Source: Halarcobacter sp. (GTDB taxonomy: Bacteria; Campylobacterota; Campylobacteria; Campylobacterales; Arcobacteraceae). Taken from it: 64,000 bases of DNA. Position numbers and translations under genes: made by a program. The notes below the pieces were generated by a model. The model was not told the origin of the DNA and searched no databases. It was given only the letters and a program-made list of their open reading frames with translations. The stretch lies in the NCBI GenBank assembly GCA_048571215.1, contig CP182352.1:2272001-2336000 (forward strand), read 5' to 3'. Shown here in pieces: positions 38,627 through 54,793 of the stretch; position 1 is the stretch's first letter, and every line of letters begins with the position of its first letter.

Positions 38627-40330
38627 TTATTTGTTTAAATCTTTTGTAAAGCTATTTAAATCAGCTCCATCAAGGTTTAATTCTTTTAGTAGTGAGTCTA
38701 CTATAGGTGATTGAGCTCTATATTTTAAGGCACTATTTACAAGTTGGTCAGGTAAAGAATCTGATGCTGAACTATTTGATTGTTCCCCACTAGAGCTTTG
38801 TCCTTGTTGACTTAGTCCATCAACTTGCAATATTTTGATACTCTCTATTTGTTCCATTGGTTTTACACTTTGAGCAATTATTTCAGGTAATTGTTCTATG
38901 AGTTTTAGTTTTATTTGCATAGCAATTTGATCTACTGATAAGGTATTTGATGCATTATTAATAGCCTCTTTTCCTTCAGCTTCAACTTTATATTCAATCG
39001 CTTTTGCTTCTGCTTTTAATTTTTCTGCTTCATTATCACTTTTTGCTGTAATAATTGCTTTATCAGCTAAACCATGAGCTAAGATTCTTTGTGCTTCTGC
39101 TTGATCTTCTGCCGCTTGTTTCTCTGCTTCTGCACCAACTTTTATGCTAATAGCTACTTTTTCTGCTTCTTGTGAAGCTTCAACTAATTCAATAGATTTA
39201 GTTCTTTCTGCAACCTCTGTTTCCCTTACAGTTTTAACTTTTTCTTCTGCTTTTACAGCCTCTGCTCTTGCTTCATCTGCTTGTGCTTTTGCAATAGATT
39301 GCATTTTTGATTTTTCTGCAACTGCAATCTCTCTATCTTGGTTTGATAGTTCTATTGATTTATTTTTTTCAATATTCTTTTCTTCTAATAATTGTTCTTT
39401 TAAAATTCTTGCTTGTTCAGTCTCTTTTTCTGAGGCAATTCTTTTTTGTTCAATCTCTTGATCAGCAAAGATTTTTGAATTTTCTGCTTCTTTTCTTTGT
39501 TCTGCTTCCTCTTTAGCAATCTCAGTAACTTGAGAAGCTCTTCTTACTGCTACTTCTCTTTCTTGTTGTAAAACGGCATACTCTTCTTCTTTTTTAATCT
39601 CTAAAGATAATCTTCTTGTTTCTAAGTCTTTTTTCTCTATTTCTACAGCGGTATCTCTTTCTATATCATTTCTTATTTTTCTTCTTGCTTCAATCTCTTG
39701 AGTTAATCTTGTAAGACCCTCTGCATCAAAAGCATTATCTGGATTGAAATACTCTTTACTTGTTTGGTCAAGTCCTGTTAAAGAGACTGATTCTAATTCT
39801 AAACCATTTTTTAATAAGTCTTCAGATACAACTTGTTGTACTTTTTGAACAAAATCTACCCTTTGCTCATGTAATTCAACCATATGCATTTCAGCAGCAA
39901 CTGCTCTTAGGGCATCTACAAATTTTCCCTCTATTAACTCTTTTAGCAAATCAGGTTGAGTAGTTCTTATACCCAACGTTTGAGCTGCAAAAGCAATTGA
40001 TTCATTTATAGGTTTAACCCTTACATAAAATTCAGCTAAAACATCAACCCTCATTCTATCTTTGGTAATAAGTGCTTGTTCATTTGACCTTTGAACTGCA
40101 AGTCTTAAAGTATTCATATTTACAGGGATTATCTCGTGTAAAATTGGTAATACAATAGCACCACCATTCATAATAACTTTTTCACCACCTAATCCTGTTC
40201 GTACAAAAGAGATCTCTTTTGAAGCTCTTTTGTATAATCTTGTAAAAATCATTCCAAGTGTAATTAATGCAAGTATTATAGTTGCTGGAATAACTAATGC
40301 CATTGATGATAAATCTAATCCAAAATCCAT
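38627..40330 (-). CDS. yqiK: Flotillin/SPFH domain protein (YqiK-like)
   Basis: FVRTGLGG, NMNTLRL, ALITKDRMRVDV.AEFYVRV, NGLELESVSLT, coiled coil, KPMEQIESIKI. Confidence 0.92.
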   Translation of the reverse strand: MDFGLDLSSMALVIPATIILALITLGMIFTRLYKRASKEISFVRTGLGGEKVIMNGGAIVLPILHEIIPVNMNTLRLAVQRSNEQALITKDRMRVDVLAEFYVRVKPINESIAFAAQTLGIRTTQPDLLKELIEGKFVDALRAVAAEMHMVELHEQRVDFVQKVQQVVSEDLLKNGLELESVSLTGLDQTSKEYFNPDNAFDAEGLTRLTQEIEARRKIRNDIERDTAVEIEKKDLETRRLSLEIKKEEEYAVLQQEREVAVRRASQVTEIAKEEAEQRKEAENSKIFADQEIEQKRIASEKETEQARILKEQLLEEKNIEKNKSIELSNQDREIAVAEKSKMQSIAKAQADEARAEAVKAEEKVKTVRETEVAERTKSIELVEASQEAEKVAISIKVGAEAEKQAAEDQAEAQRILAHGLADKAIITAKSDNEAEKLKAEAKAIEYKVEAEGKEAINNASNTLSVDQIAMQIKLKLIEQLPEIIAQSVKPMEQIESIKILQVDGLSQQGQSSSGEQSNSSASDSLPDQLVNSALKYRAQSPIVDSLLKELNLDGADLNSFTKDLNK

Positions 40331-40339
40331 ATTTTCCCT

Positions 40340-40999
40340 TTATTTTAATTTTTCTGGTATATCTTTTATTGCAAAAAAAAGTTTTTCATTTTGCCCTGAG
40401 ATTAAAACTTTTTCCCCTTGTAAAAAAACATCATTTTCATTTTCTGGTTCAATCATAAAATAATGAACCTGACCACTTTGATCTCTTACTTTTGCTTCTG
40501 CTGGTGAACCTTTTTTTGCTTTGCCTAAAGTTATAATTGCTATATGTCCTATTAGTTCATTTTTTGATATTGATGAAGTTTCATCTTTTGGTAAAATTTT
40601 TGCTACTATTCCACCAAAAATTCTTAAACTAATAATTGAACAAATAAAAGTGGGAATTAATACTATATATTGAAGCCACAAAATCCCCAAAAAACTATAT
40701 AATACAGCTTGTATTAATAATCCAATAAGGGCAAATGAAGTTAAAAATATCACTAGCAACATCATAATAGGAACTTCTTTTAGCCTAATCCAACCAAAAA
40801 ATTTAGTTAAAGAAAACTCTGTATCCACATCAAAATCCAAATCTGTATCAAAATCTGGAATTAGTGAATCAAGCATGTCAGATAAGCCTAAGCCTATTAA
40901 AACAAAAGCACCTTCTAACAAAGCAATAAATATCATCAATATAAGAGCACCAGTAAAGATAATATTATTACTGTTAAATAAGAAATCTATTAGACTCAT
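40340..40999 (-). CDS. yqiJ: YqiJ family (NfeD-like OB-fold) membrane protein
   Basis: TM helices, 'VPIMMLLVIFL', 'G.AKKGSPAEAKVRD..GQVHYFMIEP'. Confidence 0.88.
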   Translation of the reverse strand: MSLIDFLFNSNNIIFTGALILMIFIALLEGAFVLIGLGLSDMLDSLIPDFDTDLDFDVDTEFSLTKFFGWIRLKEVPIMMLLVIFLTSFALIGLLIQAVLYSFLGILWLQYIVLIPTFICSIISLRIFGGIVAKILPKDETSSISKNELIGHIAIITLGKAKKGSPAEAKVRDQSGQVHYFMIEPENENDVFLQGEKVLISGQNEKLFFAIKDIPEKLK

Positions 41000-41628
41000 T
41001 TTCTATTTGCTTTTAAACTTTGCAATCTTTCTGATACTCTATTATCTCTTGATAATTTATCAAGTTCTGCTAATTTCATATCATCATTATTTAAAAACTT
41101 AGAATCCACCCCTGTATTTACCCTATTAAAAGCCTCTTCAGCTTTTTGCATATTGTTATTTATATTTGAAGAGGTTTTTTCCTCTTTATTGATTTTAATA
41201 AACTCTTCAAGCTCCTTTTGCATCTCTCTTTTTTTTGCATTTAAAGCATCAATATAGTTTTCTAGCTTAGTTATGTTTTTTTGTATTTGTGAAACTGTTT
41301 CCTCTAAAATAGGAATTTGTGTTTCAATATCCATTTGTCTAGATATTGCAGATTTAGCCAAATCATCCCTTTGTTCTGAGATTGCTATCTCTATTTGCTC
41401 TGTAAGTTTTTCATATTTTGATTTTTCATTTTCCATTTGTTGTTTAGTTTTTCTAAACTCAATAGTCTCCTTACCCAATGAAACCTTTACCTCATCAATA
41501 GTTGAATCAATCTCTCTAATTGTCTCTTTCATTACAAGTTCAGGAGAAAGCGATTCAGCTTTATCAATCACAGCATTTATACTTCCAGAAATCAGCCTAC
41601 TAACCCTCGATGTTATATTTTCATTCAT
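40996..41628 (-). CDS. PspA/IM30 family protein
   Basis: IDKAE..PE....IRE, REDLA-like RDDLAKSA, coiled coil. Confidence 0.88.
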   Translation of the reverse strand: MNENITSRVSRLISGSINAVIDKAESLSPELVMKETIREIDSTIDEVKVSLGKETIEFRKTKQQMENEKSKYEKLTEQIEIAISEQRDDLAKSAISRQMDIETQIPILEETVSQIQKNITKLENYIDALNAKKREMQKELEEFIKINKEEKTSSNINNNMQKAEEAFNRVNTGVDSKFLNNDDMKLAELDKLSRDNRVSERLQSLKANRK

Positions 41629-41672
41629 TTACTTATCCTTCAAAGTTGAGATAAAATATAATAAATAAAAAA

Positions 41673-41694
41673 CGTCACATTTCCGTCACAAATT
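41673..41694. promoter_or_regulatory. CGTCACA-N4-CGTCACA direct-repeat box (left copy)
   Basis: cgtcaca-tttc-cgtcaca-aatt, between divergent pspA-like and recombinase genes; second copy at 52566. Confidence 0.6.
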
Positions 41695-41762
41695 AACTAA
41701 ATTTTGAAATTTTTATCAAAAAAACCTATTTCTAAATCTTTCTAAAACTTTTTGGATTTTTA

Positions 41763-41784
41763 TTTAAGCTTTAATTCTTATAAT
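41763..41784 (+). promoter_or_regulatory. Probable sigma70 promoter of the recombinase
   Basis: TTTAAG...TATAAT (41779-41784), typical Campylobacterota -10 region; GGAG RBS before ATG 41810. Confidence 0.55.
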
Positions 41785-41809
41785 CCTTAGCTTGAAGAAT
41801 GGAGAAAAG

Positions 41810-42739
41810 ATGGATATAACAAAAACGATTGAGGATTTTTTATTTCATTGTATATATGAAAAAAATCTAAGTGAAAAGACAATTAAAGCATATAAAATAG
41901 ATTTAAATCAATTTAAAAAATTTAATACTTGTAAAAACATAAAAGATATAGATAAATATACCTTAAAGGAGTATCTAAAACTATTATATGAAAAAAAACT
42001 AAAAGAGAAAACTATAAAAAGAAAGTTTGCAACGCTTAAAGCTATGTTTACTTACCTTGAGTTTGAAGAATATATTTTAGTAAGTCCATTTAGAAAAATG
42101 AAACTAAGTATAAAAGAACCTCAAAGACTTCCTAAAACAATAGAATTAAAAGAGATAAAAAAGCTTTTTATTTATGTATATAAATTAAAAAATCAGTTCA
42201 AAAATAAAAATACCTATACATACAAAAGTATCATAAGAGATATAGCTGTACTAGAACTGCTTTTTGCAACAGGTGTAAGAGTAGCAGAAGTTTGTGACAT
42301 AAAAACAAAAGATTTCAGCTCAAACTTTAGTGAACTTAAAATCATAGGAAAAGGAGACAAGCAAAGAACAATACATATCTGTAACAATGAAGTAAAAAAT
42401 GCCCTAAAAGAGTATCAACTTTTCTTCAAAGAAAAGATAAAAAAAGACGACAACTTTTTTATAAATAGATTCAATAAAAAATTATCAGAACAATCAGTTA
42501 GATTTATGATTAGAAAATATCAAGAACAAAGTAAAATAGAAAAACATCTAACCCCACATATGTTCCGCCATAGCTTCGCCACTCTACTTTTAGAAGAAGG
42601 AGTAGATATACGATATATCCAACATATGCTAGGACATAGTTCAATATCAACCACACAAATATATACAAAAGTAAGTCTGAAACATCAAAAGAAAATTTTA
42701 AATACCAAACATCCTAGACGAAGTTTTGAAGTAGATTAA
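41810..42739 (+). CDS. Tyrosine recombinase/integrase (XerC/D-like)
   Basis: N-terminal SAM-like domain; catalytic R (TGVRVAE), K (GKGDK), HxxR (PHMFRH), H (LGH) and Y (TQIYT) all present. Confidence 0.95.
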
Positions 42740-42780
42740 TACTAGATAATATTTTTAGTTTTTTATTGTCTTTTTTAATG

Positions 42781-42807
42781 AAGGATAATAGGATATTATG
42801 AATAATA
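42781..42807 (+). repeat. Left copy of a perfect 27-bp inverted repeat (AAGGATAATAGGATATTATGAATAATA)
   Basis: Exact reverse complement of 52481-52507; contains the RBS and ATG of the 42798 ORF. Confidence 0.97.
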
Positions 42808-45221
42808 GAGAAAATAATTTATTACTTTTAGTTGTAGGTTTAGGAGGTGCTATTGGTACAACTTTAGCATCAGGTTTTGCAATACCGAATAGTGAATCAA
42901 AATTAGGTTTAATGACAGAGAATCCATTAATAAAGTCATTAGGTATAAAATTTATTACTTCAAAAAATATTACACTTAGTGGTTGGGATATTAATCAAAA
43001 AAATCTTTTTGATATTGCTAGCGAATTAAAAATTGTTCCTGCTGAAAGACTACTTCAATCAAAAAGATACTTATCTTCAATTAAACCGCGTCCAGGCATT
43101 ACAAGAAAACATAATCTAAAAGAATGGTTTTATACAGAAATTGAACAATTAAACATATTAATAGAACAGACTCAATCTGATCAAGTTATAGTTTTAAATC
43201 TTCTTCCTACAGAACCAAATTATTTACAAGTAGATAAAGAGATAGATTGGGATAGTCTTGGTTCCATTTCATTAGAAACAGAGGAAGTGACTCTAAGTAG
43301 ATTATATTTTAAATTAGCTATAGAGTTGGGAGCTCATTATATTAACTTCACTCCAAATAATGCAGAAACTACACAATTGCAAAAACAAGCAATTTCCAAA
43401 AATCTAATTTTTTGTGGTAGAGATGGAAAAAGTGGACAAACATTTTTAAAAACTGTATTAGCACCTGCATTTTATCAACGTAACTTTAAGATTAATGGTT
43501 GGTATAGTACAAATCTATTAGGGAATAAAGATGGCTTAGCACTTGCTGATCCTGTAATATTTGAAACAAAAAGACAATCTAAATCCAAATGTTTAGAAGA
43601 TATAATAGGCTATGCACCAGGTGGAATAGAAGAAGCTTCATATGGACATCAGGTTCATATACACTATTATCCTCCAAGAAAAGATGCAAAAGAATCATGG
43701 GATAATATTGATTTTAGTGGTTATTTTGGTGAAGAGATGCAGTTAAAACTAAATTGGTTAGGAAAAGATTCTATTTTAGCTGCACCTATGGCATATGATC
43801 TTGTTAGAATAGTAGAGTTAAGTTCAAGGTTTAGTATAAAGGGTATTATCGAAGAAACAGGTGTATTTTTTAAAACACCTCTTTATAAATCAAAATATCC
43901 AATACACTCTTTTCCTACACAATTTGAAAATCTTTTAAAATACCTAAAAAAACTCAAATTAAATGACAATGCTTCTATTCATAATGATTGGCTGGATATA
44001 TTAAAAATATCTCCGCTATCTTCTCAAACAGGAATATACTTACATGCTTCAGAAAATATGCTCCCATATTCAGCTCGTTTAGCTCAAGCTTTAGAAGCTA
44101 TAGAGAGATACTCTTTAAAACCTCACGAGAAGTTTGAAGACAATGATATATATTTTGCAAATAATATCCCATTGCAAAAAGTCAAACAAAATTTGATAGA
44201 TAAATTTCAAGAAGTTCTATCTAGCTCTTGGGTAAGTGTGTCTGCTTTATCTGGGTTACATGCCACAGAAATATGCTTTAATTCATTTGTGAAATTAGAT
44301 GATGATGTATTTATTGTTTCTCCAAAACATGGTGGACATCCATCTATGGAACCTTTACTTAAAAGTATGAATGTAAATGTGCATTTTCTACCTTTTTTAG
44401 AAAATCAACTTATTGATGTAAATAAATTAAAAGATATGATATATAGTATAAAACCTGTTTTAATTGTATTTGATATTAGTGATTCTTTAAGAGAACAGGA
44501 TTTAGATTTTATAAAAGATATTAAAGGTAAATCTATAATTTTATTTGATGTATCCCAAACTTTAGGATTAATTATTGGAAAATCATTAACTAACCCTTTA
44601 GATAAAGGAGTAGATATTATAATAGGTACTACTCACAAAACATTTCCAGGTCCCCACAAAGCTATAATCGCTTCAAATAATAAAAAAATAGCAGAAAAAA
44701 TAGAAAATACAATCTCCATAAAAGTTAGTAGTGATCATACAGATCATATATTGAGTTTAAATGCTGCTTTAGATGAATTTCTACCCATAGCTGAAGAATT
44801 TGCAGAACAATGTAAAATAAATATTCAACTTTTTGCAAAGCTACTTAAAACATATAATATTAATGCTATTGATAGTGTTCCTTTAGATACTCATCAAATT
44901 TGGGTAATTTTTTTAGATCCTGAAGAAGCAAAAAAAGCTTATTTAGATTTAGAAAAAGCAGGTATATTTACAAATCTTAGAAAACTACCATTTAACTATG
45001 GATGGGGACTTAGAATAGGACTTCATGAAATAACACTAAGAGGTTTTAAAGAAGAAGATATAAAACAATTAGCAAAACTTTTTTCTAAAATTATCATAGA
45101 AAAAGTAGAACCATTAGAAGTCAGAGACCATGTAATTAAGTTAATAGAAAACCTTGTTCCATTATTAAAAACAAAGACTCCATTGAGTGAATTTTTACAA
45201 AAACATTTACTAGGAGAATAA
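42798..45221 (+). CDS. Fusion: myo-inositol-1-phosphate synthase (N) + SHMT-like/threonine-transaldolase-like PLP enzyme (C)
   Basis: MIPS motifs VGLGGAIGTT, INFTPN, GRDGKSGQT, WYSTNLLGNKDG, DSILAAP; SHMT-fold motifs LHASEN, SGLHA, HGGH, TTHKTFPGPHK, THQ, GLRIG. Confidence 0.88.
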   Translation: MNNRENNLLLLVVGLGGAIGTTLASGFAIPNSESKLGLMTENPLIKSLGIKFITSKNITLSGWDINQKNLFDIASELKIVPAERLLQSKRYLSSIKPRPGITRKHNLKEWFYTEIEQLNILIEQTQSDQVIVLNLLPTEPNYLQVDKEIDWDSLGSISLETEEVTLSRLYFKLAIELGAHYINFTPNNAETTQLQKQAISKNLIFCGRDGKSGQTFLKTVLAPAFYQRNFKINGWYSTNLLGNKDGLALADPVIFETKRQSKSKCLEDIIGYAPGGIEEASYGHQVHIHYYPPRKDAKESWDNIDFSGYFGEEMQLKLNWLGKDSILAAPMAYDLVRIVELSSRFSIKGIIEETGVFFKTPLYKSKYPIHSFPTQFENLLKYLKKLKLNDNASIHNDWLDILKISPLSSQTGIYLHASENMLPYSARLAQALEAIERYSLKPHEKFEDNDIYFANNIPLQKVKQNLIDKFQEVLSSSWVSVSALSGLHATEICFNSFVKLDDDVFIVSPKHGGHPSMEPLLKSMNVNVHFLPFLENQLIDVNKLKDMIYSIKPVLIVFDISDSLREQDLDFIKDIKGKSIILFDVSQTLGLIIGKSLTNPLDKGVDIIIGTTHKTFPGPHKAIIASNNKKIAEKIENTISIKVSSDHTDHILSLNAALDEFLPIAEEFAEQCKINIQLFAKLLKTYNINAIDSVPLDTHQIWVIFLDPEEAKKAYLDLEKAGIFTNLRKLPFNYGWGLRIGLHEITLRGFKEEDIKQLAKLFSKIIIEKVEPLEVRDHVIKLIENLVPLLKTKTPLSEFLQKHLLGE

Positions 45222-45222
45222 A

Positions 45223-45966
45223 GTGGCGATGAAAAAAGATATAAAAGTATTTATTGCTTCAACAGGAACGCAAATTTATAGAGAAAAAGCTAAAGAATTA
45301 GCTGAAAGTTTAGCTAAGCATTTTACAATTTATTTTTGGGAAGATGTTTTTGAACCAGGAGATACAAATATAGAAGCATTAGAAAAAGCTGTAAAAAACT
45401 GTGATTATTCTGTAGCTTTTTTAAGTAGTGAAGATTTAACTGTGAAAAGTGGGATTGAAAACCTTCAACAAAGAGACAACCTTATCTTTGAATTTGGTTT
45501 ATTTACTGGTGCTTTAGGTAGAAAAAGAAAATTTGGAGTAACCTTTGGTAGAGGTAGTGAAATAAGCTTACCTTCAGATTTAAATGGCTTAGTTTTAATA
45601 AAAGAAAATATCAACTCACATAATTTAATAAGTGATATTTCTAATAAAATTTTAGATTGTATTCAAGAGTTAGGATTCAAAGATAAAGATAATAAAGAAG
45701 TATATTTTTTATATGATTCATATAAAGTATTTGAACTCACTCCAAAGTGTATTGATATATTTGAAAAATTATTTAATAACTTTTTAAGTATTAGAACTTA
45801 TATTGAGAGAATTATTAATATATATCTATTAAATAGTATACCTGAAATTATTATGGATAAAATGTTTGTAGGTTTCCTATATTATATAGGTGATGGCATT
45901 AAAATAACTCAAAATAATACTAATAACTCTCTTGTATATTTTTGTAAAGATAGTGCAATAGCATGA
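45223..45966 (+). CDS. TIR-domain protein (CAP12/Pycsar-type predicted nucleotide-binding TIR) with unknown C-terminal region
   Basis: KVFIAS, W..VF.PG...IEAL, RDNLIFEFGLFTGALGRKR (catalytic Glu present), LPSDLNG. Confidence 0.88.
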   Translation: MAMKKDIKVFIASTGTQIYREKAKELAESLAKHFTIYFWEDVFEPGDTNIEALEKAVKNCDYSVAFLSSEDLTVKSGIENLQQRDNLIFEFGLFTGALGRKRKFGVTFGRGSEISLPSDLNGLVLIKENINSHNLISDISNKILDCIQELGFKDKDNKEVYFLYDSYKVFELTPKCIDIFEKLFNNFLSIRTYIERIINIYLLNSIPEIIMDKMFVGFLYYIGDGIKITQNNTNNSLVYFCKDSAIA

Positions 45967-45976
45967 GAAAAGATAA

Positions 45977-47164
45977 ATGAATATACCTAAGTGGCCAAGA
46001 ACAGATAAAATGGGGGAAAAGTATATTTTAGATGTCTTAGCTTCTAATCAATGGGGAGCAACGGGAATAAGATGGAGAAAAAAATCATATGAAACAAAGT
46101 TCACCAATAAATTTGCAAGTTATAATAATAGTCCATATTGCCTAACTACGTTAAATGGATCTACAGCTATAGAGTTAGCTCTTTTAGCTTTAGGCATAAG
46201 AAAAGGAGATAAGGTTTTAGTCACTGCACTTACTTGGGTATCTTGTGCTACTGCTATATTATCAGTAGGTGCCATTCCTATATTTATTGATATAGATAAG
46301 TCAAATTTATGTATGGATATTGCTAAAACTAAATATGCATTAAAAAAATATAAAAAGTGTAAAGCAATTTTATTGGTTCATGCTTATTGTAGTATTGCTC
46401 CAATTGAAGAATTTATAAAACTTACAAAAAAATATAAAGTACATTTAATAGAAGATTGTTCCCAAAGTCATGGTGCTAAATATAAGAACCAATTGTGCGG
46501 TTCATTTGGAGTATGTGGTATATTTAGTATGCAAAGTTCAAAAGTATTATCAAGTGGTGAAGGAGGTGCAATAATATTTCAAAAACAAAAATATTATACT
46601 AAAGCTCAAAAACTTAGACTTGATGGAAGAGTTCCTTCAAATTTTCCTATCGGACAAACCCTTGTTAAAACTTATAATCCTATAAGTGGTAGAAATAGAA
46701 CTATTACAGAGTTTCAACATGCATTACTACTTAGAGGGTTAGAGTTATTAGATAGTGAAAACAGTATAAGAACAAAAAATGCTTCATATTTAGGAGATAT
46801 TTTATCACAATATAATATTTCATATTTTTTTCAAAAGAGTAAAAAAGTACTTCCATCATTTTATAGATTTATATATTTTTTTGATAAAGAAAAAATGTAT
46901 GGAAATGATATTGATGAACATATTGAATATTTAGTAAAAAATGGTATACCAGCAGAAAGAGTTCATATACCTATACCTTTAAATCGTGCTATTCCAAAAA
47001 ATTTACAAAAAAATAAAAAATTTGTAAAAGATAATTTTCCTATTTCATTAGAAATTTATAATAGTTGTGTGACATTAGCTCATCAATGTTTACTCATGGA
47101 TGGAGTTAATATAACTGAACTATCAAAATACATAATAGAAGATAAAGTAGATAATTTTGAATAG
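45977..47164 (+). CDS. DegT/DnrJ/StrS aminotransferase, BtrR/StsC (inosose aminotransferase)-like
   Basis: N-terminal WP...VL.SNQW..G, GSTA, LTW, IEDCSQSHG, FSMQSSKVL..GEGG, LR.D.R. These match my recollection of the BtrR subfamily. Confidence 0.85.
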   Translation: MNIPKWPRTDKMGEKYILDVLASNQWGATGIRWRKKSYETKFTNKFASYNNSPYCLTTLNGSTAIELALLALGIRKGDKVLVTALTWVSCATAILSVGAIPIFIDIDKSNLCMDIAKTKYALKKYKKCKAILLVHAYCSIAPIEEFIKLTKKYKVHLIEDCSQSHGAKYKNQLCGSFGVCGIFSMQSSKVLSSGEGGAIIFQKQKYYTKAQKLRLDGRVPSNFPIGQTLVKTYNPISGRNRTITEFQHALLLRGLELLDSENSIRTKNASYLGDILSQYNISYFFQKSKKVLPSFYRFIYFFDKEKMYGNDIDEHIEYLVKNGIPAERVHIPIPLNRAIPKNLQKNKKFVKDNFPISLEIYNSCVTLAHQCLLMDGVNITELSKYIIEDKVDNFE

Positions 47165-47873
47165 AAATATAAATCTATCATGTATTGAAATAGAGATTAA
47201 TACAAAATGTAATTTTAAATGTTCTTATTGTCCCTCATCATTTAACAATGTAAAAAATTCATATATGTCTTTTGAAAAATATAAGATTATAATTGATAAG
47301 TTAAAACAAGTTGACTTTAATGGTAGATTATCATTTCATTTTTACAATGAACCTACTTTGCACCCTGATCTTGAAAAATTTATAAAATTTTCCTCAAAAG
47401 AACTTCCTAAAGCATTATTGAGACTATATACAAATGGATCAAGATTAAACGATAAGCTTTATTGTAGATTATCAAATGCTGGTGTGGATCAATTCTATGT
47501 AACACTTCATAAACAAACCCCTAATCTACCTACAAGACCAAAGCAGGTAGTAAGAGAATTGAGTAACATAGATATTACAAATAGAGGAGGTTCATTGCAT
47601 AGTATTAATAATCATTTAGAGATACCTTGTATGCTTCCTCAAGAGTTCTTATTATTTGATATAAATGGAAATGCACTAATGTGTTTTGAAGACTATTATA
47701 AAACTGAAATATTTGGAAATATTTTTATAGATTCTTTAGAAAAAATTTACTTCAATACTAGATTAGAAATATTTCGTAAACATCTATCTCTAGGAGATAG
47801 AACAATTTGTAATATTTGTAAAAAATGTGATAGCAAAGCTTATCAAAAACTAGGTCAGGTATATATAGAATGA
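47157..47873 (+). CDS. Radical SAM/SPASM-twitch enzyme, BtrN (2-deoxy-scyllo-inosamine dehydrogenase)-like
   Basis: CNFKCSYC; DFNGRLSFHFYNEP, YTNG, NRGG, CMLP, CFED and C-terminal CKKC as recalled for BtrN; similar length (238 aa). Confidence 0.85.
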   Translation: MNRNINLSCIEIEINTKCNFKCSYCPSSFNNVKNSYMSFEKYKIIIDKLKQVDFNGRLSFHFYNEPTLHPDLEKFIKFSSKELPKALLRLYTNGSRLNDKLYCRLSNAGVDQFYVTLHKQTPNLPTRPKQVVRELSNIDITNRGGSLHSINNHLEIPCMLPQEFLLFDINGNALMCFEDYYKTEIFGNIFIDSLEKIYFNTRLEIFRKHLSLGDRTICNICKKCDSKAYQKLGQVYIE

Positions 47874-48820
47874 ATACAACTTTAGAAATATGGCCAGCAA
47901 AATGGTTACAAAATATTCATTGGACATTTTGGGAAGAAACAGTTAAAAACAATTTTGGCTTAAATAGTCCATTTTTTGATATTAATTTTTTTAAAAGTAT
48001 TATATCTTATCAACCCTATAGTTATAGTATGGTATTTAAATCTAAAGGGGGTATTATTGCTATGTTACCTTTTGAAGTGGCTACAAAAAATAGAGCAAGA
48101 CTTTTATCTCCAGATATAGTAGGACTACATGGACTTATAATTCATAAAGACAATTTAAATAAAATTGATTTAAAAACTGCCATAAAAAAAGCTGGATTAA
48201 GATATTTACTCTTTGATCAAGTTCCTGGATGGCAAAGTACTTTTAATCCTTTTACAAGAATAGAAGATAATGCACCAAATCTAATACTTTCAAAAAGTAT
48301 TGAACGCACTAAAGTAAGTTGGAAAAACTCTGGGCAAAATACATTTGTAAATATAGATTTTAAGACTAGAAAACTTGAGAAAAAAGGTAGGCTTACTTAT
48401 ATATTTGATACAGTATCTCCTTTACTTTTTAGATATTTATCTTTAAATAAACAAAATCAATTTTATAAAACAGGTGAAGAGAATCTTTTTAGTACTAAAG
48501 AGTTTCAATCTATTTTAAATTATTTAAAAATAAATAAATCAAACAATTGTAAACTGGTCCTTTCAGCTCTTTATTTAGATAATATTCCAATAGCTGCACA
48601 TTTAGGATTATCTTCTAAAAAGACTTTTTATTCTTGGTATCCTGTGATGGATAAAAAAATAGGAAATGATTCCCCTGAATTAGTGTTATTTGGATATATT
48701 ATAAATACTCTCCATAAAAAAGGTTACAAAGTTTTAGATTTTGGCACTCAACCTATGCTTTATAAAACAAGATTGAGCAACTCCTCTTATAAAATAAAAA
48801 GAGGACTTATTCGCCCTTAG
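47870..48820 (+). CDS. GNAT family acyltransferase (CelD/BcsL-like)
   Basis: SPFF, RKLEK.G, LSALYLD..PIAAHLG, SWYP, SP, LDFG, YK..L motifs. Confidence 0.8.
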   Translation: MNTTLEIWPAKWLQNIHWTFWEETVKNNFGLNSPFFDINFFKSIISYQPYSYSMVFKSKGGIIAMLPFEVATKNRARLLSPDIVGLHGLIIHKDNLNKIDLKTAIKKAGLRYLLFDQVPGWQSTFNPFTRIEDNAPNLILSKSIERTKVSWKNSGQNTFVNIDFKTRKLEKKGRLTYIFDTVSPLLFRYLSLNKQNQFYKTGEENLFSTKEFQSILNYLKINKSNNCKLVLSALYLDNIPIAAHLGLSSKKTFYSWYPVMDKKIGNDSPELVLFGYIINTLHKKGYKVLDFGTQPMLYKTRLSNSSYKIKRGLIRP

Positions 48821-51800
48821 TTACTCTAAGAATTTCTCTTGCCATTTCTTCAAAATATGTGTCAAAGTCATAAGTTTTAAATATTTTTTCGTACCAATTA
48901 AAAAATAATTCTAAGTGTTTACATGAGTCATTTAGTAAAAAGTATTTTGCTATTTCATCATGATCCCATTCTTGACCTGAAATATCTAAGTCAAGTTTAT
49001 TAGCTAATTTATCAATTTCAACATATAAATCATAATACTTTTCTTTATTTAAAACAAACTTTACTTTTTTAGGATAAATTTGAGCCATTCTAGCTAATGT
49101 CTCTTTTATCCAATATTCTGGAATTATATTTTCATCTTTTATTTTTAAAACTTCAAGTATAGCTTTAAGAGATGCATCTGGAAATATACGAATCATCTTT
49201 CTTATGGATAAAAAGTTTAGTTTTGTATATTTTACATCTATTGCTTTTGGGACTTTTTTTAATTCTTTTGCTTCCATAACATTTTTAATTCCTTTTGAAA
49301 ATATTGGTATTTCATTATCATAATTATACAAAAGTCCCTCTATCATAGCAACTTGATTCATGGGATTATATGTTTCATTAAGCGGATTTTCACATGATAA
49401 TGTTAAGAAAAAATTCTCTGGCTGAGTTTCTTCAAAATAATACATCCATTCTTCCATTTCATTTAATATTTTTTGACAACCATCTCTATCATTTTTATCA
49501 AGTTTAAATATGGCTATTCTTTGTGCTAAGCATAATGCAGCATCTATTGAAAAGTAAAAATTTGACTTAATAAAATGTCTTAATATCCCCATACCCACTT
49601 CAGAATCAAAATACGCAGATTTTAATATACAATATCTAGCTAATATGTGTTCTATTCTATATGAATATAAAGTTGGATTACTTTTTGTCATGTCCGCTGG
49701 TTCTTTAACATCTGAACAAAAGAACCTCAATATTTCAATTTCACTATTATTAAGTTCATCTTTATTACAAACTTTTTTATACATATTTCGTAGTTGTTTT
49801 GCATAATTCTCAACATCATCACTCATTTTCCATAGATATTCTAAATGGTTATGATTTGCATCTAATGAAAAGAAATTATCAGCATAGTTTTTAATAGACA
49901 ATATAAAACTATTTATTAAATTATTTTCAAAATTAATTTTATTGGTTGAACTATTTATAACTCTATTTAGTGTATAAAGTATATTTTTTCCTATATCTCC
50001 ATCTAATTTAATACTTTTATCAAAATAAATTGATAATACAAAAATCAAACCTACCAATTGTTCTGATGTTATCGATGAGTTTTTTGCAAAATAACTTTCA
50101 AATTTAGAAAGCAGTTTTCCTCTTCTACTTGGAGTTAAAAAGTTTAAATAGATACCATATCTTGACTTTTCATACCATTTTTTATTTCCGCTTAATATAG
50201 TTTCAATTAAAAAACTTACAGCATGTAAATTATCTGAACAATACTCAACTATAAATTCTAAGAACTGTTCTTTGTCGTTAAAAGCTTCTTCAATAAAATC
50301 AAAGCCTTCACCACCATTTTCAACTAGAATTTCTTGCAAAGTATCTTTTATTAGAAGTTTTACATCATTATTTTCAATATTTAAAAGCTCTCTTAGTCTT
50401 GATATATCTGTAAGTAATGAACTTCTATTTGGTGAGTCAATGTAATTACAGCTAATATTCACTAGTGCAGATTTTAAACCTTGTATTAAATGAAACTCTC
50501 CTTTTGACTCATTTAAAATATTAACGATTTTAGAAGTGTCAAACCCCTCATCTAATTCATAAAGTTCTATAATAGATAAACCCAAAATATACTCAAAAAA
50601 TCTATCATATGTAAAACTATATCTATCATTATGAGAGCTGGTTTTATTGATTATTCTTTCATCATACAAAATATCATAAAAAGTTTTTTCTTGATCTTTT
50701 TGAGGAAATAATGATACTAAACTTTCATCAAAAGAAAATTGTTTTTTAGAAGTATTATACCCCATTGTTTGTTTTAAAAATCTACTACCTAATGATTTTA
50801 ATATTCTTTCAAACATAAACTTCTTTGGTAGTTTTTCTAAATACATTTTAAAAATAGAAAAAGCAGGTGCATATTTTGGAATTGTATCATTATTATACGC
50901 TCTTGCCATAAGATTCATTAATAGTGGATCAGATAAATGTTCTTTAAAATGCTCATCAAGACTTTCCCACTCACCTAATAAATTATAGGCTCTTTTATAT
51001 GATTTAAAAGCTAAAGGAGCCTCTTCTTTATTATATTTTTCTATTTTAAAAATTTTACTATGATGATAAAACTTAGTTATATTAGATGAATTATGCTCCA
51101 TTTGATTCCAATATATCTCTCTGCATGAAAATAGAATTTTTATTCTATCTCTTAAAACACCATCTAAAGCTAGATTTTCTATCTCTTTTTTTAGATTGCT
51201 AGGTGTAATTGTAGTAAATTCATTTATTGCATCAATTTGTATTAAAAGATTTAAATTATTTAGCTCTAAATAAGCATTTAGTGCAGAAAACCAAGTATCT
51301 TTTAAGTAAGGTTTAAATGTAAATTTTTTACTTAAGTATTCTAATAAAGAATTGTTATTATCAAAACTCTCTGGCTCTATTGTTAACGTTAAAAAAGAAC
51401 TACATTCATATCTTTTCATTGTATTATAATATATATATGTAGATTTACCCATCCCAGCTTCACCAACTAATGCAAAAATTTTAGAGTCATTTTTTAAAAA
51501 ATCATTATAGGAGTTGTTTACAGATATTCTTTCTATCAAAGTATCCATACCACCATCTGGAATTTTAGATTCTAAATTTGATAAAGCAGAATTATTAATA
51601 TTTTTTAACTTTTGTAATAAGTTTTCTTCTTCGGCATATAATCTAAATTCTTGATGGTTACTTATATACTTTAAATATTTCTCTTTAATAGGGTTATTAT
51701 TGTTAATATGGGAAAAAGTTTCTTTCATAAATTCTGAAAAATAGTATCCTAAGGTTATATATTCTCTATTTAGAAAATGATTTGTTCTGTTTTTTTTAGA

Positions 51801-52490
51801 CATGACATATACAGGGTTTTTAGTACTTTGATCTATAAACTCAAACAAAGGCTTATCTTGAAAAGAATAACCTATGGATAATATAGGATTTAAGAATATG
51901 TCAGTTAAAAACTCTTTAACTGATTCTTGAAAACTCATTTTTTCACTTCTAAATACAGCTTCAACATATGATAAATCACCCCATAAATGAGCAATAACTA
52001 CTTTATTGTTATTTAGTTGTTCTTTGATTTTAGCTATATTTTCAGTATGATTATCATCTCTTGTAAAAGAAATAGATTTTATGCTTTCATCATTCATACA
52101 AACAGCTTTGTGTGCATCTTCAAGAAGATCGTCATAGTTTGTAGTAAGGATAATTGTAGAATAACCATTTCTTTCCCTTACTCTTGCTAGACAAAAAGAT
52201 AAAAATTCAATATGCACTGAATTGGGGTGTCCGACTAATTTAGTTTCACATTCATTTTGAATATCTTTTTCATATTTATTTAAAAATTCATCAAATTTAT
52301 TTTCTAATTCATCTTTTGTTAAATTATGATAACCATATCGATTTAGGATATCTTCTTTAATTTCAGTATATGATGGTATTTTCTCACCATTTTCTTTTAT
52401 TCCTTCAGTTGATGCGCCCGCACCAACTAAAATTGTCAAAGTACCTTTATAGCTTATCAAGTTTTCAATAATTTCTTCTATATTATTCAT
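48807..52490 (-). CDS. SIR2-like domain + STAND/NACHT NTPase + long helical C-terminus (Avs-like candidate anti-phage protein)
   Basis: ILVGAGAS, LTTNYDDLLE and IGYSFQD (SIR2-like); GEAGMGKS Walker A, IQIDAINE Walker B, FSCR, PLLM, FTYDRFFEY (STAND). Confidence 0.85.
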   Translation of the reverse strand: MNNIEEIIENLISYKGTLTILVGAGASTEGIKENGEKIPSYTEIKEDILNRYGYHNLTKDELENKFDEFLNKYEKDIQNECETKLVGHPNSVHIEFLSFCLARVRERNGYSTIILTTNYDDLLEDAHKAVCMNDESIKSISFTRDDNHTENIAKIKEQLNNNKVVIAHLWGDLSYVEAVFRSEKMSFQESVKEFLTDIFLNPILSIGYSFQDKPLFEFIDQSTKNPVYVMSKKNRTNHFLNREYITLGYYFSEFMKETFSHINNNNPIKEKYLKYISNHQEFRLYAEEENLLQKLKNINNSALSNLESKIPDGGMDTLIERISVNNSYNDFLKNDSKIFALVGEAGMGKSTYIYYNTMKRYECSSFLTLTIEPESFDNNNSLLEYLSKKFTFKPYLKDTWFSALNAYLELNNLNLLIQIDAINEFTTITPSNLKKEIENLALDGVLRDRIKILFSCREIYWNQMEHNSSNITKFYHHSKIFKIEKYNKEEAPLAFKSYKRAYNLLGEWESLDEHFKEHLSDPLLMNLMARAYNNDTIPKYAPAFSIFKMYLEKLPKKFMFERILKSLGSRFLKQTMGYNTSKKQFSFDESLVSLFPQKDQEKTFYDILYDERIINKTSSHNDRYSFTYDRFFEYILGLSIIELYELDEGFDTSKIVNILNESKGEFHLIQGLKSALVNISCNYIDSPNRSSLLTDISRLRELLNIENNDVKLLIKDTLQEILVENGGEGFDFIEEAFNDKEQFLEFIVEYCSDNLHAVSFLIETILSGNKKWYEKSRYGIYLNFLTPSRRGKLLSKFESYFAKNSSITSEQLVGLIFVLSIYFDKSIKLDGDIGKNILYTLNRVINSSTNKINFENNLINSFILSIKNYADNFFSLDANHNHLEYLWKMSDDVENYAKQLRNMYKKVCNKDELNNSEIEILRFFCSDVKEPADMTKSNPTLYSYRIEHILARYCILKSAYFDSEVGMGILRHFIKSNFYFSIDAALCLAQRIAIFKLDKNDRDGCQKILNEMEEWMYYFEETQPENFFLTLSCENPLNETYNPMNQVAMIEGLLYNYDNEIPIFSKGIKNVMEAKELKKVPKAIDVKYTKLNFLSIRKMIRIFPDASLKAILEVLKIKDENIIPEYWIKETLARMAQIYPKKVKFVLNKEKYYDLYVEIDKLANKLDLDISGQEWDHDEIAKYFLLNDSCKHLELFFNWYEKIFKTYDFDTYFEEMAREILRVTKGE

Positions 52491-52507
52491 AATATCCTAT
52501 TATCCTT
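52481..52507 (-). repeat. Right copy of the perfect 27-bp inverted repeat
   Basis: TATTATTCATAATATCCTATTATCCTT is the reverse complement of 42781-42807; contains the RBS and ATG of the SIR2-STAND gene. Confidence 0.97.
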
Positions 52508-52517
52508 TATTTAATAT

Positions 52518-52536
52518 ATTATAAAATAATCTTAAT
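52518..52536 (-). promoter_or_regulatory. Probable sigma70 promoter reading into the right inverted repeat
   Basis: Minus strand reads ttaagattatttTATAATatattaaata-AAGGATAATAGG...; TATAAT at 52523-52518, 10 bp outside the repeat. Confidence 0.6.
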
Positions 52537-52565
52537 TAATATAATAAATAATTCTATCATATTTA

Positions 52566-52585
52566 CGTCACAAATTCGTCACATT
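52566..52585. promoter_or_regulatory. CGTCACA-N4-CGTCACA direct-repeat box (right copy)
   Basis: cgtcaca-aatt-cgtcaca-tt, same orientation and 11-bp period as the 41673 copy. Confidence 0.6.
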
Positions 52586-52750
52586 AATATTATAAAAAAG
52601 ATTATTTTTAAAATTTATATTGATTTGTTTATATATAATAGTTATAAAATTTACCAATGGAGATTTTTAAAAGAATAAAATTTATGATTGTACATACATA
52701 AAAGTATGCAAATAAATTTTATTTTTTAATATAGAGATTGTATAAGAATA

Positions 52751-54793
52751 CTAATCTTCCTCTTTTTTTACAAGTCCTGCTTCTTTTAAAAAGGGGCTAT
52801 TTACAAAGTCCATTTTTTTTATCTTATCGTATTTGGCGTAGCTTAGATATAAAACATCTTTTGCTCTGGTTACTGCTACATAAAAGAGTCTTCGCTCCTC
52901 TTCTAGACTTCCACCTTTGCTCATTAGTTTTCTATTTGGAAATCTTCCATCCATAAGGTCGATTACAAAAACCTCTTTAAACTCTAAACCTTTACTAGCA
53001 TGAACAGATAGAAGGTTTACCCCCTCACCTTCACTCATCTCTCCACCACCTAGAATCATTGAGTTTACGAACTTTGAAAGGTCTGAGAAATTTCTTGCTA
53101 AATTTTTTAGAAGCATCACTTTTCTATTTATTTTTGCTAAACCTTTTGCTTTTTGGGTTGGATGTATTGTTCCATCTTTTTGAGTTGCTCTTTTTGTTGC
53201 TAAAAAATCTTTTATTTTTGAATACATCATAGATGAAGTTATTGAAGTAACTAAACTTTCTGGATTCTTTGTTCTTCTTAGTTGTTTTATAAGTAGATAA
53301 AAATCATAAATATATTTTGCTCCATCAACACCCAGTTTTGGATGTTTTAATATTGGATTTCCTAAAAATGCTTCCTCAAAACCACAATCTTTAAACTTAG
53401 AAACTGAACCTAACTCTAAAAAATCATCAAAAAGTCCAAGCTGAATATTTTTCACTTTATTGGTTTCAAAAGGATTGTTTATAGCTTCATCAGGGTGAAA
53501 TAAACCTTTAAACATATCTCCACCACCTAATTTTATCAAAGCATCAAAGATATCCTTTGCAATTGACTTTCCTATCCCTTTACCATGCTCTAATACATGG
53601 ATAAATGCCATCATATCATTATGACTTAATTGCATAACCAAAACATCTATTACAAACTTTACCTCAACAGAATCAAAAAATGACATTCCACCTCTTCTTT
53701 TAGCTGGAATCCCATACTCTCTTAGGTTTGATTCTATTCCATCTGCACTTGAATTATTTCTAAAGATTATTGCTATCTCTTCATGGGGTGTAGAACTTTT
53801 TGAGATAAGGTCTGAGATATAATGGTATTGGGAAAAAAGTTCATTAAACTCCAATAACTTGGGTTTTATATCAATATCAGTTCTCATAACTTGCAAATCT
53901 TTTTCATAGACTCTTTCGTTATGTTCAATAACTCTTGTAGCTAGATCAAGTATTGGTTTACTTGAACGATAGTTTTTTCTAAGTGTATAAACAGTTGCAT
54001 CTTTATATCTAGTTGAAAATGTTGAGATAATCCCTATATCTGAACCATTAAAAGCATAAATACTTTGATCATAATCCCCTACACAAAAAAGGGATTTTGG
54101 CTTAAACCCATCTAATAGTCTACCTTGCAATGGATTAGTATCTTGGTATTCATCAACAAGAATCTCTTTAAAAGGAAATTCATTTTCTTTCAAAGTCTCT
54201 AGCATAATTGTTAATAAATCATCAAAATTAGCATATCCATATTTTATTTTTAACTCATTGAACTCTATAACCACATCTTCATAAATAGCCGTATATAGTT
54301 CATGATCTGAATTTTTATTTATTATCCATGTGGCAAAATCCTCGCCCTCGTTTGAGTTTAGGTATAAAGAGTACATATCATATAAATACCCTCCATCATA
54401 AGGATTTGCGTCATCACTTCTATCGTAAAAAACTCTTTTTTCATAAAGTGATTTAAAAAGTGTTTTTAATTCACTTGGTTGTTTTAGTGTTATATTTACA
54501 TTTAACTGTTTTAATAGTTTATATGAAACAGAGTGAAAGGTTCCTGCCATTATTTTTTGGGCAATCTCTTTTCCAAAAAATTTAGCAACTCTTATTACCA
54601 TCTCTGCTGCTGCTTTATTTGTAAAAGTTAAGAGAAGTATCTCTTCAGGTTTAACACCTTTATTTATCAAATTTGCTATTCTTCCAACAATTGTAGAGGT
54701 TTTTCCTGTACCTGCACTAGCAATAATTAGGTTGTAGCCTTCATTACATGTTGCTGCACTTAGTTGTTCTTGATTTAGATTTGATAATGGCAT
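52751..54793 (-). CDS. ATP-dependent DNA helicase, UvrD/Rep family
   Basis: ASAGTGKT, LTFTNKAA, GTFH, VDEYQD, VGDYDQSIY, NYRS, SVHASKGLEF, EERRLFYVAVTRA. Confidence 0.96.
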   Translation of the reverse strand: MPLSNLNQEQLSAATCNEGYNLIIASAGTGKTSTIVGRIANLINKGVKPEEILLLTFTNKAAAEMVIRVAKFFGKEIAQKIMAGTFHSVSYKLLKQLNVNITLKQPSELKTLFKSLYEKRVFYDRSDDANPYDGGYLYDMYSLYLNSNEGEDFATWIINKNSDHELYTAIYEDVVIEFNELKIKYGYANFDDLLTIMLETLKENEFPFKEILVDEYQDTNPLQGRLLDGFKPKSLFCVGDYDQSIYAFNGSDIGIISTFSTRYKDATVYTLRKNYRSSKPILDLATRVIEHNERVYEKDLQVMRTDIDIKPKLLEFNELFSQYHYISDLISKSSTPHEEIAIIFRNNSSADGIESNLREYGIPAKRRGGMSFFDSVEVKFVIDVLVMQLSHNDMMAFIHVLEHGKGIGKSIAKDIFDALIKLGGGDMFKGLFHPDEAINNPFETNKVKNIQLGLFDDFLELGSVSKFKDCGFEEAFLGNPILKHPKLGVDGAKYIYDFYLLIKQLRRTKNPESLVTSITSSMMYSKIKDFLATKRATQKDGTIHPTQKAKGLAKINRKVMLLKNLARNFSDLSKFVNSMILGGGEMSEGEGVNLLSVHASKGLEFKEVFVIDLMDGRFPNRKLMSKGGSLEEERRLFYVAVTRAKDVLYLSYAKYDKIKKMDFVNSPFLKEAGLVKKEED

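Follow-up and report, generated by a model that had tools for sequence, protein, structure and literature searches.

Architecture of the locus

We analysed a 64,000-nucleotide stretch of the Halarcobacter sp. genome (contig CP182352.1; hereafter the window) and, within it, a 9.7-kb segment that is bounded by a perfect inverted repeat, filled by two convergent gene units and preceded by the gene of a Xer-like tyrosine recombinase (Table 1). An original prediction, made from the letters of this DNA alone, had proposed that the segment is an invertible switch. The 27-nt repeat, AAGGATAATAGGATATTATGAATAATA, occurs at 42781-42807 (+) and 52481-52507 (-) with 0 mismatches between its copies, which are the only two in the entire 3,614,513-bp genome; the window holds no further copy at up to 3 mismatches, and two matches were obtained in 0 of 100 shuffles. 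Allowing mismatches, the repeated region grows to 39 nt at 92% identity (42774-42812 and 52476-52514). Each arm contains an internal dyad, ATAAT-AGGAT-ATTAT, and the first gene of each unit begins within the repeat: in the left site AGGA serves as ribosome-binding site (RBS), the ATG stands at 42798, and both proteins open with ATG AAT AAT, that is, MNN. These features are as originally described, and so is the gene layout, with a recombinase open reading frame (ORF) that stops 41 bp short of the left arm, five genes on the forward strand, a SIR2 gene on the reverse strand, and a tail-to-tail overlap of 14 bp (48807-48820) between unit A (42798-48820) and unit B.

The recombinase had been called intact, and its 315-aa translation indeed runs without stops. 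It matches Phage_integrase with an E-value of 5.8e-39, covering model positions 19-169 of 172, and contains HMFRHSFAT; in the protein we recognise what we take to be the HxxR and LGH...Y motifs. The true start is likely the ATG at 41810. The XerC and XerD models score it at 243 and 238 bits, below their cut-offs of 335 and 330, and it is distinct (~28% identity) from a ~354-aa recombinase present in most of the 40 relatives searched, which is presumably the housekeeping Xer.

Among the cargo products, the TIR protein of unit A matches PADLOC TIR effector models (E 5e-28), and the protein of unit B combines a SIR2_2 domain (E 1e-12, residues 113-225) with a sub-threshold AAA_22/nSTAND5 region (residues 323-465). 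No PADLOC model matched the SIR2-NTPase or the inositol-synthase/SHMT (serine hydroxymethyltransferase), DegT and GNAT proteins, and a PDB sequence search with the SIR2-NTPase returned nothing useful. In the 183 other genomes of the family, one distant relative of the SIR2-NTPase was found (29%) and no homolog of the inositol-synthase/SHMT fusion at E<=1e-40, so that the window's own cassette cannot be traced through its cargo.

The flanks consist of housekeeping-type genes, with valS, flotillin, yqiJ and pspA on the left and the UvrD/PcrA-like helicase on the right. The helicase is 85.7% identical in a syntenic relative that carries different cargo. A membrane-stress operon of pspA/IM30, yqiJ and flotillin (SPFH), at 38627-41628 on the reverse strand, adjoins the recombinase and is also kept in the syntenic relative.

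Table 1. Features of the cassette and its flanks, in window coordinates.
Feature	Position	Strand	Remarks
CGTCAC-N5-CGTCAC, left copy	41673..41689	+	between pspA and the recombinase gene
Xer-like tyrosine recombinase, 315 aa	41792..42739	+	Phage_integrase plus N-terminal SAM-like domain
Left-flank RNA hairpin (predicted)	42752..42799	+	U-rich stretch pairs, with G-U pairs, with AAGGAUAAUAGGA, the Shine-Dalgarno region of the left site
Left recombination site	42781..42807	+	core GGATAAT 42783-42789, AGGAT 42790-42794, ATTAT 42795-42799
Unit A gene 1: myo-inositol-1-phosphate-synthase-like + SHMT-like pyridoxal-phosphate (PLP) enzyme fusion, 807 aa	42798..45221	+	
Unit A gene 2: CAP12/Pycsar-type TIR protein, 247 aa	45223..45966	+	PF10137, E 8.9e-22
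Unit A gene 3: DegT/DnrJ/EryC1-type aminotransferase	45977..47164	+	
Unit A gene 4: radical SAM/SPASM protein	47157..47873	+	weak viperin-model matches, E 7e-12 (PADLOC)
Unit A gene 5: GNAT-type (Acetyltransf_6)	47870..48820	+	
Unit B: SIR2 + P-loop (STAND-like) NTPase, 1227 aa	48807..52490	-	
Right recombination site	52481..52507	-	exact reverse complement of the left site; holds RBS and ATG of the SIR2-NTPase gene
Right-flank promoter region (predicted)	52518..52559	-	TATAAT 52523-52518; extended -10-like TGATAGAAT 52559-52551
CGTCAC-N5-CGTCAC, right copy	52566..52582	+	upstream (- direction) of the right-flank -10 boxes
UvrD/PcrA-like helicase	52751..54793	-	conserved right-hand flank gene outside the cassette; reads toward it

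Both orientations are present in public contigs

Four public runs (X1-X4) cover the stretch. They derive from two samples of one sediment metagenome study, three of them may be the source of the assembly, and they are stored as contigs of 31-letter words (k=31), which we compared with the window over 41000-54500. X1, X2 and X3 agree with one another: the contig of the left flank reaches as far as 42807, a single contig corresponds exactly to 42781-52507 (9727 nt), and the right-flank contig begins at 52481. In X4, contigs end at 42807 and 52507 and start at 52481. The public contigs are broken at both sites, left and right, and since the 27-bp repeat is shorter than the 30-letter overlap of the graph, the repeat alone cannot have broken them.

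Each junction is further represented by two 33-nt contigs, one matching the reference at 33/33 positions and the other at 30/33, namely the outer 3 nt plus the repeat. In X1 the depths of the full and partial matches were 35 vs 12.7 at the left junction, where they sum to the flank depth of 48, and 21.2 vs 13.5 at the right. The corresponding values were 6 vs 3 (left) and 2 vs 5 (right) in X2, and 38.3 vs 25 at the right junction of X3. From these contig depths the minor orientation makes up some 27-40%, with similar shares in both samples.

We then simulated the graph at k=31. The reference alone collapses into one unbroken unitig, whereas a mixture of the reference and its flipped form yields exactly the five observed unitigs together with 6 words specific to the flipped form, equivalent to two 33-nt contigs; given this exact fit, the last three letters of the alternative contigs could be deduced. 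The contig graph and its simulation establish that both orientations occur in these samples. The 9.7-kb segment is thus a real invertible element, as the original prediction had proposed, with both junction forms in the contigs of X1-X3 and a mixture needed to reproduce them.

A family of recombinases with adjoining cassettes

In the family, 23 of 184 genomes contain homologs of the window recombinase with at least 52% identity, at 28 places in all. We analysed 24 loci, comprising 23 of these places and one relative from the same order; five homologs whose contigs end beside the gene (G130, G162, G175, G195 and G009) were set aside, as were the weak or partial loci L091, L095 and L096. At 16 of the 24 loci, an inverted repeat of 13-28 bp places its left arm 3-60 nt past the recombinase stop and its partner 1.5-9.7 kb downstream, and all arms share the core [G/A]ATAAT-N5-ATTAT. 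In the DNA upstream of the recombinase, examined at nine loci, four additional cassettes were found (G166, G056b, G081 and G012). Counting the upstream cassettes of G166 and G056b, 18 of the 24 loci carry at least one cassette, and the related genomes, which had been suggested as a place to look, hold recombinase homologs and the core with inverted or different cargo.

The same design extends to named records beyond these loci: a syntenic metagenome-assembled genome (MAG) labelled Arcobacter sp., a Campylobacterales MAG, Sulfurospirillum (19-bp repeat, 2.1 kb), Oscillospiraceae (20-bp repeat, 1.6 kb) and Treponema (46-bp repeat, 6.7 kb, recombinase 45% identical). Plasmids of Aliarcobacter cryaerophilus and A. 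faecis also carry homologs, whose annotation goes no further than 'tyrosine-type recombinase/integrase' and whose neighbours are hypothetical; the plasmid of A. cryaerophilus ATCC 43158 has two such recombinase genes, each as part of a recombinase-plus-cassette locus.

In a tree of 34 recombinases, the type of site follows the recombinase clade, the site groups being AGGTA, TAATAAT-AGGAT, TAGTA-AAGAA-CTA, GATAAT-TAAGA/TTAAG and, in Treponema, TATTT. The tree has a midpoint root and flagged long branches, so it was used only for this correspondence between clade and site; the window recombinase is represented in it by that of G017, 90% identical.

How much weight the repeats themselves can bear was calibrated on random windows. 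Inverted repeats of at least 15 bp turned up in 70 of 411 random 330-bp windows, and of at least 16 bp in 36 of 411; in such AT-rich DNA repeat length alone is weak evidence, a point that counts against our interpretation and that we return to below. The case therefore builds on three other features: the core that the loci share, where it lies, and the points at which homology breaks off. Within its own genome the core occurs 28 times at up to 2 mismatches, against 13 for the reversed control, and no additional paired core sites were seen at this threshold. A metagenome scan gave 0 matches to the 27-mer and at least 120 stretches with the 16-nt core; among 80 of these that were fetched, one (L185) has a recombinase homolog adjoining, 42 nt from its stop. 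As 16 nt amount to a chance word in so large a collection, we draw no conclusion from the core scan.

The contig graph and the recurrence of the core leave hardly any room for the view that the repeat is a duplicated translation-initiation region that never recombines. Both arms do hold an RBS and a start codon, as this view would have it. However, the contig graph holds both junction forms, the core turns up again next to homologous recombinases where the cargo genes are unrelated, and 5 of 16 cassettes have sites without an AGG or RBS function.

It is also very improbable, if less so, that the segment inverts by another route, through RecA-dependent homologous recombination at the 27-bp repeat or through the housekeeping Xer, with the adjacent recombinase a leftover integrase. 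Recombinases beside defence islands are often the integrases of mobile elements, which speaks for this explanation. Against it, repeats of 13-19 bp, too short for efficient homologous recombination, flank cassettes that are seen both ways; in 16 loci 3-60 nt separate the site from the recombinase stop, and the sequence of the site goes with the clade of the recombinase; and the ~354-aa recombinase is nearly universal among the relatives, whether they have cassettes or not.

Two further records of sites and platforms deserve mention. The window's own genome has a second platform at G000:C1:2229241-2233470 (L031 3242-7463), with a 63%-identical recombinase, a 16-bp inverted repeat GATAATAGGTAGTTAT, and a 707-aa nSTAND/TPR protein with a convergent ATP-grasp enzyme as cargo. 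In the Eubacteriaceae-type record L083 (10938-10972), a recombinase of 48% identity is followed by one site only, the full palindrome TTAATCGAGGATAAT-AAGAA-ATTATCCTCGATTAA, and L090 has a close variant; neither has a partner site within 10 kb. This palindrome suggests the full extent of the binding arms, and the single sites may be empty platforms or attachment sites.

Cassettes are reversed and exchanged at the sites

For comparison, all loci were placed with the recombinase on the left. Over its full 1660 bp, the cassette of G056a is 94.7% identical to that of G052a in the reverse direction; it also matches that of G087, which has the same orientation as G052a, at 72%, again reversed. The cassettes of G017 and G054 are likewise reversed relative to each other (75.6% over ~1540 bp), and the sole cassette of G047c is the second cassette of G054, at 97.5% and reversed.

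Homology between loci also begins and ends at the sites. Between G052a and G047b, left-flank identity is 97.8% and extends to the final base of the left arm; from the right arm onwards, the right flanks are 90.8% identical. The cargo in between, 1.66 kb and 3.42 kb, is unrelated. In G052a and G056a, cassette identity (94.6%) exceeds that of the recombinase flank (89.7%), and the right flanks are unrelated. The window and its syntenic relative follow this scheme: homology is interrupted from the left arm to the helicase gene, and the cargo is unrelated. Reversed cassettes and breakpoints at the sites together indicate that cassettes both flip and are exchanged, precisely at the sites. The original prediction had offered, as an alternative to inversion, that the 27-mer is a cassette landing site; this is borne out inasmuch as cargo is swapped exactly at the sites, but it does not exclude inversion.

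These comparisons bear on whether the two orientations in the sediment samples could belong to two sub-lineages, each fixed in an opposite stable orientation, inversion having happened once or rarely and no switching being under way. Metagenome contigs of a single study are blind to switching within a clone, and to that degree such an explanation would fit; we consider it improbable. Records 1-24 of X1-X3 on the 13.5-kb stretch show 0 other letters, save two short ones with 1 each, both forms occur in both samples at similar shares, and homologous cassettes stand in both orientations in several species, which argues for repeated inversion.

In all seven genomes with at least two cassettes, the central 5-mer differs between the cassettes. 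Tyrosine recombinases require the strand-exchange region to match between partner sites, and a 5-mer particular to each cassette is what would be expected if the centre of the site is that region. In G054 (L068), two cassettes stand in tandem, 83 bp apart (sites 2263/3818 and 3901/7877), with the same arms and different central 5-mers, AGGAT and AAAGA. In G081 (L101/L076) and G012 (L102/L035), a cassette with a spacer of its own stands on each side of the recombinase; upstream the cargo is Type II or Type IIG restriction-modification (R-M), and the downstream cassettes carry Type IIG or a 760-aa protein of unknown kind.

Asymmetry of the flanks

The two sides of the cassette differ in their putative control elements. 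The TATAAT reported 10 bp outside the right arm is there, and the 41-bp left gap has GATAAT in place of an exact TATAAT. In most of 16 cassettes, -10-like boxes, often after TG, lie at similar distances outside the right arm. Beyond the right-flank boxes of the window lies one copy of a direct repeat, CGTCAC-N5-CGTCAC, which is a probable regulator site of a putative promoter firing into the cassette; the other copy is probably the operator of the leftward pspA promoter. At up to 1 mismatch the genome has 14 copies, vs 1 for the reversed control, and 9 of the 14 lie 42-51 nt upstream of the start codon of a listed ORF, pspA included. The same motif with 6-nt spacing returned nothing, the spacing being 5 nt, and both window copies are kept in the syntenic relative. 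The motif looks like the operator of a regulator whose regulon would include the pspA-yqiJ-flotillin operon and the cassette-facing promoter. The copies inspected lie between called ORFs.

On the left, the predicted hairpin would pair the Shine-Dalgarno region of the left site. It folds at -13.1 kcal/mol (z -3.0, with 1 of 200 shuffles as stable) and at -13.4 (z -3.04) in the syntenic relative, whereas the right flank gives -4.8 kcal/mol (z -0.57). Of 16 cassettes, among which related loci are not independent, 14 have the more stable fold on the left side, and one clade has a terminator-like hairpin between the recombinase stop and the left arm. These patterns lead us to prefer a model in which the right side would provide a fixed, strong expression site and the left side a weak or masked one. 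The SIR2-NTPase would then be favoured in the reference state and the five-gene operon after flipping.

As a separate observation on the left flank, the sequence AATATCCTATTA, which exactly reverse-complements a portion of the core, is found 14 nt before the left site in L064, L065, L067, L068 and L069 (the TAATAAT clade). It could be an anti-Shine-Dalgarno RNA element or an accessory half-site for recombinase binding to DNA.

Immune-type cargo and facing gene pairs

Recognisable cargo is largely immune-type, comprising R-M, SIR2/STAND-like and TIR proteins. The R-M cargo includes a Type I-like methylase with specificity subunit, Type II, Type IIG (twice) and Type III systems, and one cassette holds a methylase, a specificity subunit and a DndB/TIR protein. 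SIR2-NTPases are found in the window and in Treponema, and TIR cargo in the window.

In the remaining cargo, an enzyme gene faces a large protein. ATP-grasp enzymes face a ~810-aa AAA/STAND-like protein in five cassettes, and further facing pairs are methyltransferase/GNAT, methyltransferase/249-aa protein, and glycosyltransferase/deacetylase with an 888-aa protein. The Treponema cassette, in which an ATP-grasp-methyltransferase and a kinase face a 1394-aa SIR2-AAA protein, mirrors that of the window, and the SIR2 and Walker A/B regions of its large protein align with those of the window SIR2-NTPase. In L060, L063, L067, L031, L062, L084, L094 and the window, a large NTPase or repeat protein stands convergent to an enzyme of the small-molecule or modification kind (ATP-grasp, SHMT-like, methyltransferase, glycosyltransferase). 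This recurring combination, whose members have diverged jointly (38% and 27% identity in one pair), suggests two-gene systems that have so far gone unrecognised.

A model for flipping and exchange

We interpret 42781-52507 as one cassette of a 'flip-and-swap' platform, in which the adjacent recombinase would flip the units between unequal flanks and exchange whole cassettes, and assign this reading a probability of roughly 0.62. Mechanistically, the Xer-like recombinase would catalyse conservative site-specific recombination at the central 5 nt of a site made up of the arms GGATAAT and ATTAT around an asymmetric centre, AGGAT, that doubles as Shine-Dalgarno sequence. With the crossover inside the shared RBS/ATG stretch, the coding sequences would remain intact and only the upstream control regions would be exchanged, in line with the earlier suggestion that inversion preserves both reading frames. 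The right-facing unit would be joined to a probably regulated promoter, formed by CGTCAC-N5-CGTCAC and the -10 boxes, and the left-facing unit would receive only read-through from the recombinase gene, by way of the RBS-sequestering hairpin. Whether the SIR2-NTPase or the five-gene TIR/biosynthetic operon is strongly expressed would then depend on the orientation, and flipping would make the population heterogeneous. In addition, the same inverted sites would permit exchange of cassettes between platforms by double crossover, and different central 5-mers would keep the platforms of one genome apart.

Several observations weigh against this interpretation, besides the commonness of short inverted repeats in AT-rich DNA. 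The link between recombinase and inversion is correlative, resting on adjacency at 18 of 24 loci and on a site type that follows the clade, and no cassette was found at the other six loci (G124, G122, G060, G170, G008 and G028). The contigs, all from runs of one study, cannot separate switching within a clone from two coexisting sub-lineages. With respect to expression, the right arm of the window is also partly paired with its flank in a fold of equal length (19 of 27 nt, -8.5 kcal/mol). Scans of both flanks with the sigma-70 consensus gave fewer sites than shuffles (6 vs 8.7 and 2 vs 5.2), such a scan being uninformative for this AT-rich organism. Since the recombinase and helicase genes both read into the cassette, both units may be transcribed in both states. 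Finally, facing genes are kept together: in two cassettes of one genome, the ATP-grasp enzyme (38%) and its ~810-aa partner (27%); elsewhere a 241-aa methyltransferase and a 320-aa GNAT protein (both ~61%); and, between G054 and G017, a 266-aa methyltransferase (65%) and its 249-aa partner (79%). That three pairs are co-inherited despite divergence weakens the idea of convergent genes as independent alternatives, and the two units of the window may be halves of one system rather than two independent defence modules.

Some of these observations would fit a platform that serves cassette exchange only, in which inverted sites prevent loss by excision yet allow exchange by double crossover, both flanks supply transcription, and inversion is a neutral by-product without regulation. 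We regard this as unlikely, though it is the most serious of the competing explanations. It would account for cargo swapped exactly at the sites between homologous platforms, for the same cassette in different flank contexts with an identity above that of the recombinase flank, for flanking genes that both read inward, for tandem arrays of cassettes with different spacers, and for the co-inheritance of paired genes, which probably need co-expression. It sits less well with the recurring asymmetry of the flanks, promoter-like on the right and with a terminator or an RBS-sequestering hairpin on the left; with one-directional R-M cargo (G168, G052b, G047c and G012), which would be sensitive to orientation; and with a minor orientation held at 27-40% in the population. 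We retain the flip-and-swap interpretation.

Relation to known systems

With integrons the platform shares a tyrosine recombinase beside promoterless, exchangeable cassettes and platform promoters, and integron cassettes also carry phage-defence genes. An integron proper was ruled out by the scores of the integron-integrase models (113.7 bits vs a cut-off of 265 for TIGR02249; 66 vs 435 for NF011946) and by the arrangement of the sites, which are short cores in inverted pairs without the direct order of attI and attC. Unlike integrons, the cassettes described here have simple double-stranded cores instead of a folded attC, come singly or in twos instead of long arrays, and lie in a segment that inverts.

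For the exchange of cassettes, the closest parallel is that of the dif modules (pdif) of Acinetobacter plasmids. These have inverse Xer-type sites at their ends, move between replicons, and turn up in either orientation and in a variety of contexts. Their sites are dif-like XerC/XerD sites of 28 bp, on which the housekeeping XerC/XerD of the host act. Here, in contrast, a dedicated single recombinase gene adjoins, the core is GATAAT-N5-ATTAT and the site supplies the RBS. Cargo and hosts differ as well, dif modules carrying resistance genes, and the present cassettes carrying immune-type genes in Campylobacterota, Spirochaetota and Bacillota.

The switch logic is, in our assessment, closest to that of the Mycoplasma vpma, vsp and vsa loci. 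In M. agalactiae vpma/Xer1, as in M. bovis vsp/Mbr and M. pulmonis vsa/HvsR, a Xer-like recombinase is adjacent and sites lie before the starts of genes. In the published account of vpma, Xer1 is encoded beside the locus, the sites lie in the 5' untranslated region (-1 to -72), and inversion brings a silent gene to the one fixed promoter (PMC2268961). The cargo there consists of related surface lipoproteins and provides antigenic variation, whereas here it consists of unrelated whole genes or operons, mostly immune-type. Other differences from vpma are that the present platforms usually have two units or one operon, a short core that includes the Shine-Dalgarno sequence, cassettes that are swapped and a spacer of their own.

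Gene-altering programmed inversions and the hsdS 'epigenetic invertons' (PMC7672463; shufflons of Type I R-M) are similar in their adjacent recombinase, inverted repeats, defence genes and resulting heterogeneity. Those inversions swap parts of proteins; here whole genes or operons move between control regions and the protein sequence is unchanged. The pipeline of Milman et al. 2023 required at least one repeat inside coding sequence (PMC9881135) and would on that account have missed the present class.

A search of the full-text literature, which covers neither subscription journals nor supplements, found no description of this cassette family, which is apparently widespread and undescribed. 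The broader proposal, to which we give somewhat less than even odds, is that of an undescribed multi-phylum platform for gene capture and phase variation, integron-like but with another recombination logic, that flips promoterless immune modules on and off, trades them between chromosome and plasmid by a natural form of recombinase-mediated cassette exchange and uses its 5-nt spacers as address labels. A dedicated Xer-like recombinase would act on inverted, double-stranded cores that are Shine-Dalgarno sequences at the same time, and much of the cargo (ATP-grasp, SHMT-like or methyltransferase enzymes with large NTPases as partners) would represent new two-gene immune systems. If so, bacteria of at least three phyla would possess a compact, portable device that combines clonal heterogeneity in immune genes with trade of modules between replicons without loss by excision. 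It would constitute a third route by which defence genes are organised and mobilised, beside integrons and defence islands on mobile elements, and would explain some of the 'orphan integrases' annotated beside defence genes.

The platform could also serve as a handle on new immune systems, anything between its sites being a candidate and the pairs of enzyme and large NTPase the obvious examples. Short, spacer-tolerant sites and a small recombinase could interest builders of recombinase tools, and Aliarcobacter cryaerophilus ATCC 43158, a type strain available from culture collections, would allow the system to be tested directly.

A further repeat in the genome

Another repeated sequence of the same genome, GTTAATAGAATATTAT, occurs four times on one strand, at G000:C1:3189610, 3191656, 3202390 and 3204436. 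The copies form two pairs, with 2046 bp within each pair and ~12.8 kb between the pairs, an arrangement that suggests a duplicated element, separate from the cassettes.

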